A stretch of DNA of 13,050 nucleotides from a virus, in the UHGV virus genome UHGV-1714330. One strand, given 5' to 3'. Made by a program: the position numbers and the translations under genes. Positions 1 to 5,554 of the stretch are shown piece after piece. Under the pieces are notes generated by a model that saw only the letters and a list, made by a program, of their open reading frames with translations, was not told the origin of the DNA and made no database searches. Each line of letters starts with the position of its first letter. The first letter of the stretch is position 1.

Positions 1-303
1 GGGAGGGCAATATTATCAGATCAGAGCGATGCCATACGCAACATCACTGGTGAGTTCATGGCTGTAAACGCCGAAAATTATTCAATATGGGAATCAGTAG
101 GCTCGTTTAAGGGGGCAGTGGTGCCTTTGAATCCCTCAACGAACAATAGTTATTTCTCCTTAATCAGAAGTATGGTGATAGAAAGAACAGATGGCTCTGT
201 TTACCCAAAAGTGATTGGCCTTGATGCTTCAAGAATTGTTCCAACTGCAAACGAAAACCGTCCTCGTAACATTGCCTTTAATTATATCGTGAGGGCTGCC
301 TGA
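1..303 (+). CDS. Alternative tail fiber C-terminal (receptor-binding) segment, 5' end outside the window
   Basis: Frame 1 is open from base 1 to the TGA at 301-303, so the listed 58..303 ORF is only the end of a longer reading frame. The C-terminus (..NIAFNYIVRAA) resembles the ends of phage side tail fibers. The stop overlaps the start of the next gene (TGATG). Confidence 0.55.
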   Translation, partial: GRAILSDQSDAIRNITGEFMAVNAENYSIWESVGSFKGAVVPLNPSTNNSYFSLIRSMVIERTDGSVYPKVIGLDASRIVPTANENRPRNIAFNYIVRAA

Positions 304-905
304 TGAATAAAGCCGTATTAAATAACGAACTCATTGCCATAAAAGCGGGAGACATTACCATTTATAATTATGATGGTGAAACGCGGGAATATATTTCCAC
401 ATCAACTGAATATCTTGCTGTGGGTGTCGGTATTCCGGCATTTTCCTGTCTGGAGGCACCTGGCATATACAAGGCTGGTTATGCAATTTGTCGCTCTGTG
501 GATTTAAATTCATGGAAATATGTGCCAGACCATCGCGGTGAAATCGTCTATAACACCGAAACGGGAGACGCCAAAGAAATCACAGCTCCGGGTGATTACC
601 CCGAAAATACAACCACTATCGCCCCGTTAACGCCATACGATAAATGGGATGGTGAGAAATGGGTGACCGATACTGAGGCACAGCATTGCGCCGCAGTAGA
701 CGCGGCAGAAGCACAGCGCCAGTCACTGATTGATGCTGCAATGGCTTCCATCAGTCTGATTCAGCTGAAATTACAGGCCGGGCGGAGGCTGACGCAGGCA
801 GAAACCACCCGCCTTAACGCCGTGCTGGATTACATTGACGCGGTGACGGCAACAGATACCAGCACCGCGCCGGATGTCATCTGGCCTGAACTGCCGGAGG
901 TGTAG
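303..905 (+). CDS. Tail fiber assembly (chaperone) protein, alternative copy
   Basis: 200-aa ORF directly after a fiber C-terminal segment. Its C-terminus carries the motif DTSTAPDVIWPELP, also found at the end of the convergent tail fiber assembly gene at 877..1320. Confidence 0.7.
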   Translation: MNKAVLNNELIAIKAGDITIYNYDGETREYISTSTEYLAVGVGIPAFSCLEAPGIYKAGYAICRSVDLNSWKYVPDHRGEIVYNTETGDAKEITAPGDYPENTTTIAPLTPYDKWDGEKWVTDTEAQHCAAVDAAEAQRQSLIDAAMASISLIQLKLQAGRRLTQAETTRLNAVLDYIDAVTATDTSTAPDVIWPELPEV

Positions 906-1320
906 GCCATTCAATATCGGGGGCTGTTGATGTATCAACACGCATCAGCAGCACACGGTATTTCTTCCATTGGGTGAGAGTTGAAGTTTCTTCATCAGTT
1001 GCGATACCAGCATCAACAGCATCCTGACGCCAGGATATTTCACTGTCAGCTTTTGCACGAAATGTGGCTTTCATGTTTTCTGCATCTGATATTTTCTGTT
1101 CTGGTGAAAGCGGCGGCTCATCAACCCATGCAAGGGTCCCTGAAACCATTCCCAGCATTTTTCCTGTTGGCTTATTTCCCCCATTAAATCTGACAGCATC
1201 CTCATCGCTGATTTCAATACCATCCTGCGGCCATGTCCCCTCCTTGATATAACTTTCATATAGCGCTGCGTTGTAGATTGCATTTTCGGACGGGCTGTAA
1301 ACACTTTTAATTTTATTCAT
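877..1320 (-). CDS. Tail fiber assembly protein (positional equivalent of P2 gpG)
   Basis: 147-aa ORF immediately after H, preceded by a GGGAGA ribosome-binding site. C-terminal motif VDTSTAPDIEWP. Its 3' end overlaps the convergent tfa copy by 29 nt (877..905). Confidence 0.8.
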   Translation of the reverse strand: MNKIKSVYSPSENAIYNAALYESYIKEGTWPQDGIEISDEDAVRFNGGNKPTGKMLGMVSGTLAWVDEPPLSPEQKISDAENMKATFRAKADSEISWRQDAVDAGIATDEETSTLTQWKKYRVLLMRVDTSTAPDIEWPTPPAVQAR

Positions 1321-1324
1321 TCTG

Positions 1325-2542
1325 TTATCTCCCTTTCGCTATATAGCAAAGATTAAACCCACCGGCGCCTGACATACGGGCTGTAAAACCCGTTCTTGAA
1401 GTACCAGTTGAGTTAACTCCATAAGCAGGCATGGTTGCTGGAGAAAGCAGAGACTCCTGGATATCTGCCATTGTCAGTGTAATTGATTCGACCCGCGCGG
1501 GGAAAGGTAGCGGGAAAACAACATTCGTCCCTGTCTGTCCAACGGGGAAACCGAAAATACCCCATTGTGTAATTACCCCTTCCGGCCCCTTACTCCATCC
1601 AGATTTAGGAATCGGCCAGTCTGCTGCTCCAGAGTGCCCCGTTGTAAAACTACTCATATCTGGTACTTGCCCGGTATCCGTTCCGACGTTCCTCGTTGCC
1701 GCTTCTCCCAAACCAAGGTATGCGAGAAGGCCGGCAACATCCTTTCCGCTCAAATGAGTCAGCGTCTCATCCAGTGGCTGCTTACCTGACAGCGCATTGT
1801 TAATGGTGGTGCTGAATTTCGGGTCATTGTTAATGGCTGCGGCAATTTCTTTCAGTGTGTCCAGCGTGGCTGGCGCACCGTTAATCAGAGCGGTAATAGC
1901 GGCCTGAACAAACGCAGTGGTCGCAATCCGCGTGGTGTTATTTCCTGCGGCAGGCGTCGGCGCTTTTGGTTCTCCGGTAAATGTCGGATTATGTTTCTGT
2001 GCATACTGGGTATGAGGATCCTGTGCGGCAATGTGGTTTCTCATCTGGTCATCCACATACAGCCTTAATTCCAGGACTTCATCATCCACGTATTTACGGG
2101 TCGCCAGTACCACCGACGGGTCGATTTTCAGCGTGATGGCTTCGGTATTCGAGACAACCAGAATCATGCGGATAGTCTGGGTACGACCGCTTCCTTCCTG
2201 CAACTGCGGTTTGTACGTTTCCGGGCAGTTTGCCACCGCAATGAGTACGCCTTCATCATCATAAAGCCCAATCTCACGGATCCAGAATCCGCCCTCGTTC
2301 TCAGGGATGATTTGCTCCGCAATAATCTGGCTCTGGTTGTTCGGGTCAACACTCAGAAGATTCAGCGGCGCGATGCGTTTCTGGTTAATCAGTTTTGTCT
2401 GTGCCGGGTCTGGTGTCGGCAAGACACCATTCGCATCACCAACGGCCATTTGCGTCAGATTCAGCTTACTGCCGAGCATCGTCGCGTTAGCCAGCCGTGC
2501 TGCGCCCTGATTAGTCAGAATGGCGTAGTATTTCACTGTCAT
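1325..2542 (-). CDS. H: Tail fiber protein (P2 gpH-like N-terminal domain, distinct C-terminal domain)
   Basis: 405-aa ORF. The N-terminal region (..TQMAVGDANGVLP.., GGFWIREIGLYDDEGVLIAVAN, EGSGRTQTIRMILVV) resembles P2 H and Mu S-type fiber N-termini. The ATG at 2540-2542 overlaps the gpI stop. Confidence 0.9.
   Translation of the reverse strand: MTVKYYAILTNQGAARLANATMLGSKLNLTQMAVGDANGVLPTPDPAQTKLINQKRIAPLNLLSVDPNNQSQIIAEQIIPENEGGFWIREIGLYDDEGVLIAVANCPETYKPQLQEGSGRTQTIRMILVVSNTEAITLKIDPSVVLATRKYVDDEVLELRLYVDDQMRNHIAAQDPHTQYAQKHNPTFTGEPKAPTPAAGNNTTRIATTAFVQAAITALINGAPATLDTLKEIAAAINNDPKFSTTINNALSGKQPLDETLTHLSGKDVAGLLAYLGLGEAATRNVGTDTGQVPDMSSFTTGHSGAADWPIPKSGWSKGPEGVITQWGIFGFPVGQTGTNVVFPLPFPARVESITLTMADIQESLLSPATMPAYGVNSTGTSRTGFTARMSGAGGFNLCYIAKGR
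1703..1728. other. Candidate serine DNA invertase crossover site (hix/gix/cix-like) inside H
   Basis: TTCTCCCAAACC-AA-GGTATGCGAGAA. The two 12-bp half-sites agree at 10 of 12 positions as an inverted repeat around a central AA. It matches hixL (TTCTTGAAAACCAAGGTTTTTGATAA, quoted from memory) at 18 of 26 positions, including the AAACCAAGGT core. It encodes LLAYLGLGE, about aa 272-280 of H. Confidence 0.5.
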
Positions 2543-3150
2543 GCGTTTACTCTCAGGTTATCAATTAAATGAATGGCCGAGGCCGGGAAATAATCCCCTC
2601 CGACAATAATGGCCTCCGGGGTGTAGGGATAAACCGTCAGGGCGTCGCCGTGATAGCATCCCGCACCGGCAAAAATGTTGCCGGTTGTACTTAAACTGAT
2701 AGCCAGTCCCGTCAGATGGCGGCTTGCCGGTTTTGCATCAGCAACGAGGCGCTCCAGCTCCTGATACATTTCTTCGGTAATACCCTGCTCAAGCACGCCA
2801 ACAACGATACGGAACGTCCCCGGCTCCTCGTTGAGCTGCCACCACTCCCTCACCTCAATCAGATAGCCGAGCGGCTCCACCACACGGCGAATCGCACCAA
2901 TAGTGCCCTTATGGCAGTGAATGAAATACGCATCGCGGATAACAGCGCGTTTTGTCGCTTCCGGCCACTTATCATCCCAGCGGTCAACCGAAAATGACCA
3001 CGCCAGCCACGGCAGCAGATTTGCCGGACAGGTATCCGGGTTCCACAGCTCACGAATACTGACCGGCGTTTTTTCAATTTCCGCACAGGCTTTTGCGGTG
3101 GCGACTTCAAGCGGTGATGAGCCGGTCGGCAGCAGGCGCGAATCACTCAT
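2539..3150 (-). CDS. I: Baseplate assembly protein gpI
   Basis: 203-aa ORF beginning MSDSRLLPTGSSPLEV.., in the position between J and H. A GGAGG ribosome-binding site lies 5 nt upstream. It overlaps the J stop. Confidence 0.85.
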   Translation of the reverse strand: MSDSRLLPTGSSPLEVATAKACAEIEKTPVSIRELWNPDTCPANLLPWLAWSFSVDRWDDKWPEATKRAVIRDAYFIHCHKGTIGAIRRVVEPLGYLIEVREWWQLNEEPGTFRIVVGVLEQGITEEMYQELERLVADAKPASRHLTGLAISLSTTGNIFAGAGCYHGDALTVYPYTPEAIIVGGDYFPASAIHLIDNLRVNA

Positions 3151-4051
3151 CCGAGCCTCCGGTCACGACGCGGTATTCGGTACAGAAAGACGCCTGCGTA
3201 CTGTTGAGCACAATGTCGGCCAGTGGTGCGGCCAGCTCGACACGCTGCACGCCTTCCACATGCAAAGCGGCATAAATGGCAGACAGACGGATGTCGCGCC
3301 CCAGCCGGTGCTGTGCCGTGATGTACGCTTCCAGTTTTTTCACGGCAGCAGCGCGGATGGGTTCGCTTTCGGGACCAGGGTAAAGGTAAAGCGTGGCGTT
3401 TATCTGGTATTCAACAATGGCGGCAGACTGCACGGTCACGCGGTCGGCCACCGGCCTGACGTCCTCGCCATTAAGGGCGTTACGCACCACGGCCAGCAGG
3501 TCTTCGGATGCGACGCCGTTATTTTCACGTGACAGCACGGAGATAGTGACGCAGGCCGGAGACGGACTGGTGACAGAGATATCCGCGACACGCCCGTCGG
3601 CACTGCGACCATGATACTGATAGGCTCCCACCGACCCGGCGACGCTTAAGCCCTCAAACGCCTGCTGAATACGCAGACGATAATCGGTGTCAGACTCCAT
3701 CACTGCCGGTGTCGGCGGGATGGTCGAATCATCTGCCGGGGTGATAATCAGGCGCGTGGTGTTGTAATTGGCACCAATCACATCAAGGTCATTACCGGCG
3801 GCACAGGCCAGCATCACCGCCCGTGCGGCCTCATTCACACGCTGACGCCAGATAAGCTCACGATAAGCATTTTCCTCCAGCAGTTTGACGAGAGGCTCGG
3901 ATTCCAGCGTCAGGGTACGGGCGACCGCCTCCTGCTGGTCTTCCGGGTAAAGGGAAATCAGTGTCGCCTTGCGTTCGGCGAGAATGGTTTCAAAGTCCAG
4001 CTCCTCGACCACATCCGGTGCGGGTAGCTGGTTCAGGTCGATAATCGGCAT
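3143..4051 (-). CDS. J: Baseplate protein gpJ
   Basis: 302-aa ORF, the same length as P2 gpJ as I recall it, in the position between W and I. Confidence 0.9.
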   Translation of the reverse strand: MPIIDLNQLPAPDVVEELDFETILAERKATLISLYPEDQQEAVARTLTLESEPLVKLLEENAYRELIWRQRVNEAARAVMLACAAGNDLDVIGANYNTTRLIITPADDSTIPPTPAVMESDTDYRLRIQQAFEGLSVAGSVGAYQYHGRSADGRVADISVTSPSPACVTISVLSRENNGVASEDLLAVVRNALNGEDVRPVADRVTVQSAAIVEYQINATLYLYPGPESEPIRAAAVKKLEAYITAQHRLGRDIRLSAIYAALHVEGVQRVELAAPLADIVLNSTQASFCTEYRVVTGGSDE

Positions 4052-4055
4052 GGTT

Positions 4056-4403
4056 TCAACTCACAGGGATGGTTAACGAAAGTGGCTGGCCGGTGTCGTT
4101 GTGCTGGCCGGTTAACGTGACCGTCATTCGCCCGTCAAAACTGCGCGCCGTGGTGACGGATGACAGGGTGACGCGGGGTTCCCATTTCAGCACCGCCATG
4201 TAACAGGCGACCTTAATCTGCAACTCAAGCGCCGGGGTCTGCGGCTGGTCAATCATTGACGCCAGCAACGAGCCGTAATCACGACGCATCACCCGTGAGC
4301 CGACCGGTGTGCGCAGGATATCGCCGATACTCTGGCTGATATGCTCAAGGTCAGTGACAGTCAGGCCATCACTGCGATTCATTCCGAGATAACGCGCTGT
4401 CAT
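4056..4403 (-). CDS. W: Baseplate wedge protein gpW
   Basis: 115-aa ORF, the same length as P2 gpW as I recall it. Its start overlaps the V stop (ATGA). Confidence 0.9.
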   Translation of the reverse strand: MTARYLGMNRSDGLTVTDLEHISQSIGDILRTPVGSRVMRRDYGSLLASMIDQPQTPALELQIKVACYMAVLKWEPRVTLSSVTTARSFDGRMTVTLTGQHNDTGQPLSLTIPVS

Positions 4404-5035
4404 AGAGGCCCCCCTGTTGTGCCGCCACTGTCGCCGGGGTGTTTATGGGTATGCAGTACCTTACCGTTTGATGAGAGTTCACCGCCGGTGTGTTCAATGT
4501 TGCCGCGCATCGTCCCGCCCTTCTGCACTTCCAGCGTGCCGGTAGTCAGTTTGTTAGTGCAGACCACTTCCGGTGTGTCCAGGGTGACACGGGTTGACGC
4601 TTTCACCGTGACCACCGGTACCGTGGCAGTAACAGAATCAGAAGCCGTCACGCTGGCCGTTTTAATTCCGCTTACCGTGAGCGCGCTGGTTTCGGGTTCA
4701 TACTCAATCACCGCCCCGTCAGGGAAACGGATATGCAGGGCATCCGCCGACGCAGACGGCGCGGGGTTATCGCCGGAATAAATCCCCGGCAGAACGAACG
4801 CCGTGTCGAGTTCACCGCCCACGGCCAGAATCAGCACCTGTTCCCCCACGGAAGGTGCCCACCATGTGCGCGAACGTCCGGCGCGATGGGTCAGCCACTG
4901 AAGCCAGTCGGTGCACATGCCGCCGGTCTGCACACGGCAGCGACCGGCGTTAAGGTCGGTTTCGACGACAATGCCGGTGCGTATCATGTTGCGCAGTGCG
5001 CGCGCGAGTTCCTGAATATTTGCGAGAGTGTTCAT
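4400..5035 (-). CDS. V: Baseplate spike protein gpV
   Basis: 211-aa ORF, the same length as P2 gpV as I recall it, first gene after the S-V intergenic spacer. Confidence 0.9.
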   Translation of the reverse strand: MNTLANIQELARALRNMIRTGIVVETDLNAGRCRVQTGGMCTDWLQWLTHRAGRSRTWWAPSVGEQVLILAVGGELDTAFVLPGIYSGDNPAPSASADALHIRFPDGAVIEYEPETSALTVSGIKTASVTASDSVTATVPVVTVKASTRVTLDTPEVVCTNKLTTGTLEVQKGGTMRGNIEHTGGELSSNGKVLHTHKHPGDSGGTTGGPL

Positions 5036-5046
5036 AACGGGAAGGA

Positions 5047-5070
5047 TGCCGCCGGGTCATACCGGCGGCA
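5047..5070. repeat. Perfect 9-bp GC-rich inverted repeat with a 6-nt spacer in the S-V intergenic region
   Basis: TGCCGCCGG-gtcata-CCGGCGGCA, read directly from the sequence. It sits in the 66-bp gap between the S stop (5102) and the V start (5035). Confidence 0.6.
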
Positions 5071-5101
5071 ATGTGACGATGAGGTGTCGGGAATGGCACA
5101 A

Positions 5102-5554
5102 CTAACGGTCGAGGTGCGCCAGAATAATCTCTTCAATCATCTGCACATCCTCACCGGTAAAGCCGAGCAGAGGACGCGCCGGATAATCAATTTTCTTACC
5201 GTCTTTCCGGGTTTCTTCCGACAGACCGAACTGATGCACGCTGGCGATTTTCGGTGACTTTCCGCCGTAAAACTCCATTGATGCCTGTTCCGGGCTGGCG
5301 CGGATATGCAAAAAACGACTGGTGATAAGTTTCGCAAACATTTTTCGCTTAACGCGACCGGTCTTTTTTCTGGCGCTCTGCTGCTGGCGTGGTGCGTAGG
5401 GTGTGCCGTCCGGGGCTTTCTGTGCCATCACCCGGCGCTGCTGACTCTGCCGCAGACGTTTCGCCAGTTCGGCGCTCAGTCGCCGACGCCCTGACGGTGA
5501 CAGCGATTCAATAAGTCCGGCCAGCCGGTCTTCAAAACGCTTAAACTCATTCAT
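5102..5554 (-). CDS. S: Tail completion protein gpS
   Basis: 150-aa ORF, the same length as P2 gpS as I recall it. Its start overlaps the R stop. Confidence 0.9.
   Translation of the reverse strand: MNEFKRFEDRLAGLIESLSPSGRRRLSAELAKRLRQSQQRRVMAQKAPDGTPYAPRQQQSARKKTGRVKRKMFAKLITSRFLHIRASPEQASMEFYGGKSPKIASVHQFGLSEETRKDGKKIDYPARPLLGFTGEDVQMIEEIILAHLDR

Follow-up and report, generated by a model that had tools for sequence, protein, structure and literature searches.

Genes and features at the fibre end of the locus

The window analysed here, ENA metagenome contig ERZ773186 NODE_2614, is a 13,050-nucleotide stretch of viral DNA that carries a Peduovirus (P2-like) late-gene module with its genes in P2 order. 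The encoded gpJ is 99% (300/302) identical to that of P2, and the open reading frames (ORFs) from M to J are equal in length to those in the P2 annotation. The closest phage to the window is Escherichia phage pro483, with 97% identity over 92% of the window, and pro483, pro147, and STYP1 show 97% identity over 79-92% of it. The exact window was not found in any complete E. coli genome, the best match being 97%.

Next to gpJ, ORF calling gave gpI (2539..3150, minus strand, 203 aa) and the tail fibre gene H (1325..2542, minus strand, 405 aa). gpI is the long form of the baseplate wedge "triplex" single-copy subunit; it matches Pfam Tail_P2_I (PF09684; E 5e-56, 188.9 bits against a cut-off of 20.6), is homologous over residues 3-176 to PA0619 ("Tri2") of R2 pyocin (6u5b; E 6e-41), and is 99% identical to large E. 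coli protein clusters. The H protein begins with a baseplate-attachment domain (residues 1-150; 2093..2542, minus strand) that belongs to the tail-collar fibre N-terminal family (Pfam PF12571, Phage_tail_fib N-terminal; E 9e-63), followed by a shaft (residues 151-271; 1730..2092, minus strand). A 26-bp inversion crossover site of the Gin/Cin type, TTCTCCCAAACC-AA-GGTATGCGAGAA (1703..1728, plus strand), encodes residues 272-280 (LLAYLGLGE), and the expressed variable tip (Sv; residues 281-405; 1325..1702, minus strand) completes the protein.

Downstream of H lies the tail fibre assembly chaperone of the expressed tip (877..1320, minus strand, 147 aa; Pfam Caudo_TAP, E 1e-32). On the plus strand, an alternative TfaE-like chaperone of 200 aa (303..905; Caudo_TAP, E 2e-32), annotated as tfaE in related E. 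coli prophages, converges on it with a 29-nt overlap. The first 303 nucleotides (1..303, plus strand) hold the 3′ end of a silent alternative tip (Sv′), the last 100 codons of a frame that is already open at base 1, continues leftwards out of the window, and closes with ...ENRPRNIAFNYIVRAA.

The lengths of gpI and H are those of a common class

The first-pass annotation had remarked that gpI and H differ in length from their P2 counterparts within an otherwise P2-like region. Both ORFs were confirmed on the minus strand and matched to their Pfam families, and the P2 figures that it quoted for I (176), H (669), and M to J proved correct against the P2 record NC_001895, in which I has 531 bp (176 aa), H has 2010 bp (669 aa), and G encodes 175 aa. 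The remainder of the region is indeed P2-like, with a nucleotide identity to P2 of 93-100% from W to about nt 2930, in addition to the gpJ identity given above.

A wider comparison places these lengths in a different light. gpI has 176 aa also in 186 and PSP3, 201 aa in Fels-2, and 203 aa in pro483 and T22 "P2". Nearly all of the 120 best database relatives of gpI have 201-204 aa, with the 176-aa form occurring twice among them, and relatives of 201-204 aa come from Escherichia, Salmonella, Cronobacter, Citrobacter, Leclercia, Serratia, Kosakonia, and Edwardsiella. In Enterobacterales, the form of 201-204 aa is the commonest. Since P2, 186, and PSP3 have the less common form, a comparison of lengths with P2 alone is a misleading guide. 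We also surveyed H in 80 related viral loci from IMG/VR, using complete H genes only. In loci with a long gpI, H ranged from 319 to 711 aa (median 400, n = 39), and in loci with a short gpI it ranged from 487 to 952 aa (median 696, n = 24). An H of 405 aa is thus typical for its class. Among named phages with a long gpI, H has 399 aa in pro483, 499 aa in T22 "P2", and 524 aa in Fels-2.

The lengths of gpI and H are not unusual; they represent the normal layout of a known group of E. coli P2-like prophages, and the P2-type fibre set, consisting of a 176-aa gpI ending in ...TVYPG, a gpH of about 669 aa with a P2-type tip, and a single gpG, is absent from the window. The suggestion that the lengths signal an exchange of sequence relative to P2 consequently stands only in part: they are typical of well-characterised P2-like phages (Fels-2 with its 201-aa gpI, pro483 with its 203-aa gpI and 399-aa H), but mosaic breakpoints do exist, as described below.

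Similarity to P2 breaks at several points

In a sliding comparison, nucleotide identity to P2 dropped between about nt 2930 and 2700. To the left of about nt 2700 it was at most about 60%, except for a stretch of 0.73 at about nt 2220-2300 in the region of the H N-terminal domain. Aligning gpI and H with their homologues from P2, 186, PSP3, and Fels-2, as had been proposed, located several breaks and not one. Mosaic junctions lie at gpI codon ~97 (nt ~2860), at H codon ~150, and at the crossover site (1703-1728), with further junctions at nt ~940 and ~248 seen against P2-like relatives.

The first junction falls inside gpI. Residues 1-95 (2866..3150, minus strand) are of P2 type, being 97% identical to P2 gpI but sharing only 60-78% of positions with the other long gpIs; as far as about nt 2930 the DNA keeps an identity to P2 of 0.9 or more, and the sequence upstream of the junction is 95-100% that of P2. 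Residues 99-203 (2539..2856, minus strand) are 83-89% identical to other long gpIs, and their identity to P2 falls to 70% over residues 99-145 and to 50% over residues 146-175. The gpIs of P2, 186, and PSP3 end at ...TVYPG; that of the window runs 28 residues further, and this C-terminal extension, YTPEAIIVGGDYFPASAIHLIDNLRVNA (2542-2625, minus strand), is absent from all three in the alignment. Judged from these identities, gpI is a natural chimera, with a P2-type half that stands beside a gpJ 99% identical to that of P2 and a half of the long class. Recombination at about codon 97 therefore joined the two. AlphaFold2 (AF2), run on an alignment of 30 sequences, gave a gpI model with a mean pLDDT of 55 and values below 50 for residues 141-203, which was too poor for a fold search or for contacts.

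The units of H are delimited in a similar manner. Residues 1-150 are about 53% identical to the corresponding part of H in P2, 186, and PSP3 (global alignment of 150 residues; a BLASTP alignment of H with P2 gave 42% over a longer N-terminal stretch), and they are 73-99% identical to those of every H behind a long gpI. The shaft is a separate exchangeable unit; among loci with a 99% identical H N-terminus, its identity is either 94-100% or 32-59%. T22 "P2" has an extra shaft repeat in the region of residues 151-271, and P2 H has extra shaft repeats compared with the H of the window. The tips of the window H and of P2 H show no similarity by BLASTP, as expected from the earlier proposal that the receptor-binding tip has been replaced. 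On the other side of the crossover site, nt 259-1727 share a nucleotide identity of 94-98% with cassettes from E. coli prophages that carry Mu-type baseplate genes, and this homology stops at the site. The match of pro483 and of E. coli SC418 to the window reaches nt 1696, after which the sequences diverge.

It had been suggested that the attachment interface and the receptor-binding domain were exchanged jointly, as one module, relative to P2. Such a single event would account for the fact that all sequence to the left of about nt 2860 differs from P2, and also for a GC content that falls there from about 0.58 to 0.41-0.52. However, the GC content declines stepwise, in stages, and the segments of the two proteins (C-terminal part of gpI, N-terminal part of H, shaft, tip) give discordant identities. 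Two junctions, one at H codon ~150 and one at the crossover site, lie between the interface and the tip. Relatives whose residues 1-150 of H are 99% identical bear different shafts and tips, and exchange of the tip apart from the rest is indicated by cassettes of tip and chaperone that are nearly identical in prophages with Mu-type baseplates and by the end of the pro483 and SC418 match at nt 1696. We consequently regard a single joint replacement as improbable. On these comparisons, the fibre end is assembled from at least four or five units, and not swapped as one.

The expressed tip resembles a gp53-type receptor-binding domain

The expressed tip consists of a linker followed by a lectin-like, gp53-like receptor-binding domain. 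Residues 320-404 of H belong to Pfam Gp53-like_C (PF21882; 37.9 bits against a cut-off of 24.9, E 3e-9), and a weak direct sequence match to AP22 gp53 (4mtm) was also obtained. A structure prediction of the H C-terminus, which the first-pass annotation had recommended as a search for receptor-binding folds, led to the same family. The AF2 model of residues 270-405 is a beta-sandwich of moderate confidence (pLDDT 66, with 70-87 in the core). A Foldseek search with this model returned 4mtm as the top match (E 3e-5, TM 0.53), then C-terminal fragments of R1 and R2 pyocin fibres, and then H-type lectins. On the basis of this predicted fold, the H tip can reasonably be expected to bind a surface sugar such as LPS. 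The 147-aa chaperone accompanies the tip of the window also in unrelated prophages. In other genomes, the tip occurs either fused to a fibre (226 aa) or as a silent 143-aa ORF beside an invertase, and in the silent ORF the coding sequence of the first residues is supplied by the crossover site on the invertase side together with its flank.

The tip of H probably lies on a Gin-type invertible segment

A search of the window for crossover sites matched only at nt 1703..1728 (expectation from shuffled sequences, 0), and this site aligns in register with gix of Mu. It is the top inverted repeat in pro483, SC418, T22, and a 220-kb contig that encodes an identical H protein. In relatives, the partner site, TTCTCCCAAACC-AA-CGTTTATGAAAA, lies about 1.9 kb away at the start of the silent tip gene, beside a DNA invertase; in pro483 and the loci L006 and L004 both sites are present, inverted, and with a central AA. 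The window has one crossover site, and the position of the partner would be about 200 bp past its left end. The silent tip is 93% identical at the nucleotide level to that of SC418, in which the full 183-aa ORF starts at the partner site beside the invertase.

The fibre gene is split accordingly. Its constant 5′ part (1729-2542, residues 1-271 of H) lies outside the segment, the alternative 3′ tips lie inside it (1325-1702 and, in the opposite orientation, 1-303), and each tip is accompanied by its own Caudo_TAP chaperone in one of two convergent cassettes. The invertase gene is outside the window, and it is present in the 220-kb contig and, as an annotated gene, in pro483, T22, SC418, strain 144, and Fels-2. 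These relatives (pro483, T22 "P2", SC418, strain 144, Fels-2, and the 220-kb contig) share the gene order J, I, H, Tfa, opposite-strand Tfa, opposite-strand tip, invertase, sheath. The 220-kb contig is 98.6% identical to the window at the nucleotide level over 8.3 kb and carries both sites and an intact invertase of 197 aa, which is Gin-like (3uj3, E 4e-94). Among the IMG/VR loci, only some of those with a long gpI carry an invertase.

Inversion performed in silico between the central dinucleotides stayed in frame in every intact relative, changing the length of H from 405 to 442, from 399 to 445, from 399 to 439, and from 499 to 473 aa. Both orientations of the segment were found among relatives, with the TfaE-like cassette of T22 "P2" facing the other way with respect to the H constant part. 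In cultures of EPEC, Goldberg et al. (PMC4272514) measured a continuous flipping of the fibre segments of P2-like prophages. A 2026 survey of P2-like viruses contains no discussion of invertases or of gpI.

Together, these results suggest that the locus is very probably the host-range end of a pro483-like Peduovirus late operon in an E. coli prophage, composed of exchangeable units and with the tip of H on a Gin-type invertible segment. H consists of the constant part (residues 1-271), the 26-bp recombination site, and a 125-residue lectin-like tip of gp53 type. Of the two convergent cassettes, one has the gp53-type tip and the 147-aa chaperone and the other has a collar or "NIAFNYIVRAA"-type tip and the 200-aa TfaE-like chaperone. 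A Gin-like serine invertase is predicted outside the window, just to its left; it and the partner site would lie roughly 200 to 1,000 bp beyond the edge, and the partner site is expected in the form TTCTCCCAAACCAACGTTTA(T/A)GAAAA. The enzyme would flip a segment of ~1.9 kb between the H site and the partner site, so that H would have about 445 aa in place of 405, with the other tip and chaperone, and host range would hence switch by the mechanism of the Mu G segment. H would thus be short and variable because its 3′ end sits on such a segment. As the invertase and the second site are outside the window, inversion activity is extrapolated from relatives, and we infer by analogy with them that the phage of the window itself carries an invertase and flips.

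An alternative is that the locus is a frozen relic, as in phage 186, with a fixed 405-aa fibre and inversion lost. Phage 186 has an annotated relic crossover site without an invertase, the copies of these genes in strain 144 are frameshifted, and neither an invertase gene nor a partner site lies within the window. Against this, the gene of the silent chaperone is intact, as is the silent tip as far as the window shows it, an intact Gin-like invertase and both sites are present on the contig that encodes the identical H, and a full-length or partial invertase match was present in 6/7 of the closest IMG/VR relatives with sequence beyond H. We therefore give the loss of inversion as small a probability as the joint replacement considered above. 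A truncated or decaying H, or a mis-assembled contig that would render the 405 aa meaningless, is extremely improbable: the contig does end within the invertible segment, as do two other metagenome contigs, but the identical 405-aa protein is encoded on four independent contigs (0-2 nt differences, no amino-acid change), has the full domain set from N-terminal attachment to C-terminal tip plus a cognate chaperone, lies near the class median of 400, and stands in a gene order that is repeated in complete genomes.

An operon end with an invertible fibre segment is a known layout of the Mu G-segment type, real but ordinary. It carries little weight as a discovery, since invertible fibre segments are annotated publicly in P2-like prophages of E. 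coli and Salmonella (Fels-2, pro483, T22). Metagenome contigs tend to end inside flipping segments, so that the invertase is hidden from a reader of the contig.

The C-terminal half of gpI and the H attachment domain are inherited together

We compared the form of gpI with the class of H residues 1-150 in 66 non-redundant pairs from IMG/VR. A long gpI was paired with a window-like H in 45 of them and a short gpI with a P2-like H in 21, with 0 discordant pairs (Fisher p about 1e-17, a value that ignores shared ancestry). The concept of the attachment interface as a module is thereby upheld for the C-terminal half of gpI and the N-terminal domain of H, which are co-inherited in 66/66 pairs, but the tip is not part of the same module. 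In the diffocin triplex, it is the C-terminal region of the subunit present in one copy that links to the tail fibre (PMC11329794); a review of R-pyocins contains nothing on PA0619. By homology to the pyocin and diffocin triplexes, gpI residues 99-203 and H residues 1-150 are plausibly the socket and the plug of the fibre, and their co-variation in sequence supports a fibre-docking module.

A stronger version of this proposal is that the chimeric gpI is a natural adapter, in which the P2-type half would preserve the fit to P2 gpJ and gpW, and the long-class half with its 28-residue tail would be strictly required for this class of H, so that gpI(99-203) and H(1-150) would form an obligate pair. 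We advance it tentatively, its chances being in our estimate slightly short of even. If the adapter reading is true, the boundaries at gpI codon ~97 and H codon ~150 would mark the limits of a portable unit of socket and plug with which P2-like phages and tailocins could be re-targeted. The co-variation and the surrounding junctions offer usable boundaries for fibre engineering.

Comparison with known invertible and P2-like systems

The locus is arranged like the G segment of Mu, the C segment of P1, and the P segment of e14 (served by Gin, Cin, and Pin, respectively), with which it shares the order J-like gene, I-like gene, fibre constant part, Sv, U, U′, Sv′, and, in its relatives, invertase. 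Further similarities are a site of 26 bp whose AAACC-NN-GGT core is in register with gix and, in the relatives of the window, a Gin-like invertase and the exchange of tips by inversion. Unlike these systems, the backbone here is P2-like, the central dinucleotide is AA compared to GA in gix, the tips are of the gp53-like and collar types, and the invertase and second site are cut off from the window.

P2, 186, and PSP3 share with the window the order and the lengths of the genes from O to J, a homologous H N-terminal domain, and a YLGL motif at the position of the crossover site, and P2 is close to it in gpJ (99%) and in gpI residues 1-95 (97%). In contrast, their gpI has 176 aa and lacks the 28-residue tail, their H proteins have 669, 462, and 675 aa, respectively, with other shaft repeats and tips, and they have a single chaperone gene and no invertase; P2 also has orf30 and fun(Z). 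R-type pyocin resembles the locus in PA0619, the homologue of gpI, and in the C-terminal domain of its fibre (PA0620), which resembles the tip model, although that model is of moderate confidence (TM about 0.53, 18-22% identity) and PA0619, with 177 aa, is of the short form.

Salmonella phage Fels-2 (Felsduovirus) also has a long gpI, of 201 aa, and its H belongs to the same N-terminal class (66% identity over residues 1-150). It carries a pair of gpG-like genes in opposed orientation and a silent fragment of H, and its sheath gene is preceded by a DNA invertase. It differs in its level of identity (about 58-66%), in a 524-aa H with a P2/PSP3-like tip, and in a backbone that is diverged throughout. 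The nearest counterparts are pro483 (Peduovirus pro483) and T22 "P2" (Peduovirus magyaro), which have the 203-aa gpI (99% identical), the constant part of H, and the crossover site, as well as a pair of chaperone genes that converge, a silent tip, and, ahead of the sheath gene, an invertase. pro483 departs from the window in the expressed tip and its chaperone (window 940-1695), the H proteins being 82% identical overall, and in the last ~250 nt of the silent tip. T22 differs in carrying the segment in the other orientation and in its extra shaft repeat, which gives an H of 499 aa.

Cassettes shared with prophages that have Mu-type baseplate genes

The part of the window that holds the expressed fibre tip, encoded by H at 1325-1702 (minus strand), and both chaperone genes (877-1320, minus strand, and 303-905, plus strand) shows 94-98% nucleotide identity over positions 259-1727 to invertible cassettes of the E. 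coli prophages L093, L095, L097 and L098, whose baseplate genes are of the Mu type (Pfam families of Mu gp45-48) and not of the P2 type. The homology of the cassettes between the window and these prophages ends at the crossover site within H (1703-1728). A shufflon-like multi-cassette version with several tips and chaperones is found in L095. GC content is about 0.58 at J and rightwards, 0.51-0.54 in the constant part of H and 0.45-0.47 in the neighbourhood of the tip and chaperone; the silent tip (1-303, plus strand) has 0.41-0.43. This stepwise drop over window positions 1-2600 is consistent with modules acquired separately.

Decaying and apparent relic forms

The nearest complete-genome match to the fibre region, at 97%, is E. 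coli strain 144 (NZ_CP023364), where H, the chaperone and the silent-tip genes carry frameshifts; this is the same module in a decaying copy. In phage 186, a "Mu-like inversion crossover site" is annotated within the fibre gene K (3963-3988 of record L010), despite which the invertase is absent, and the counterpart of this position in P2 H is a YLGLQE motif. The site and the motif look like relics of one junction in phages with fixed fibres.

orf30, fun(Z) and contig ends

S (5102-5554) and V (4400-5035) are separated by just 66 nt (5036-5101), and therefore the non-essential orf30 of P2 is absent from the window. The position of fun(Z) in P2, between G and FI, is occupied in relatives by the invertible segment and the invertase. 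The left end of the window (position 1) falls within the silent tip gene, and two further metagenome contigs with an identical H protein (L008 and L009) likewise terminate inside the invertible segment, a pattern suggesting that assembly breaks off where the DNA flips or varies.
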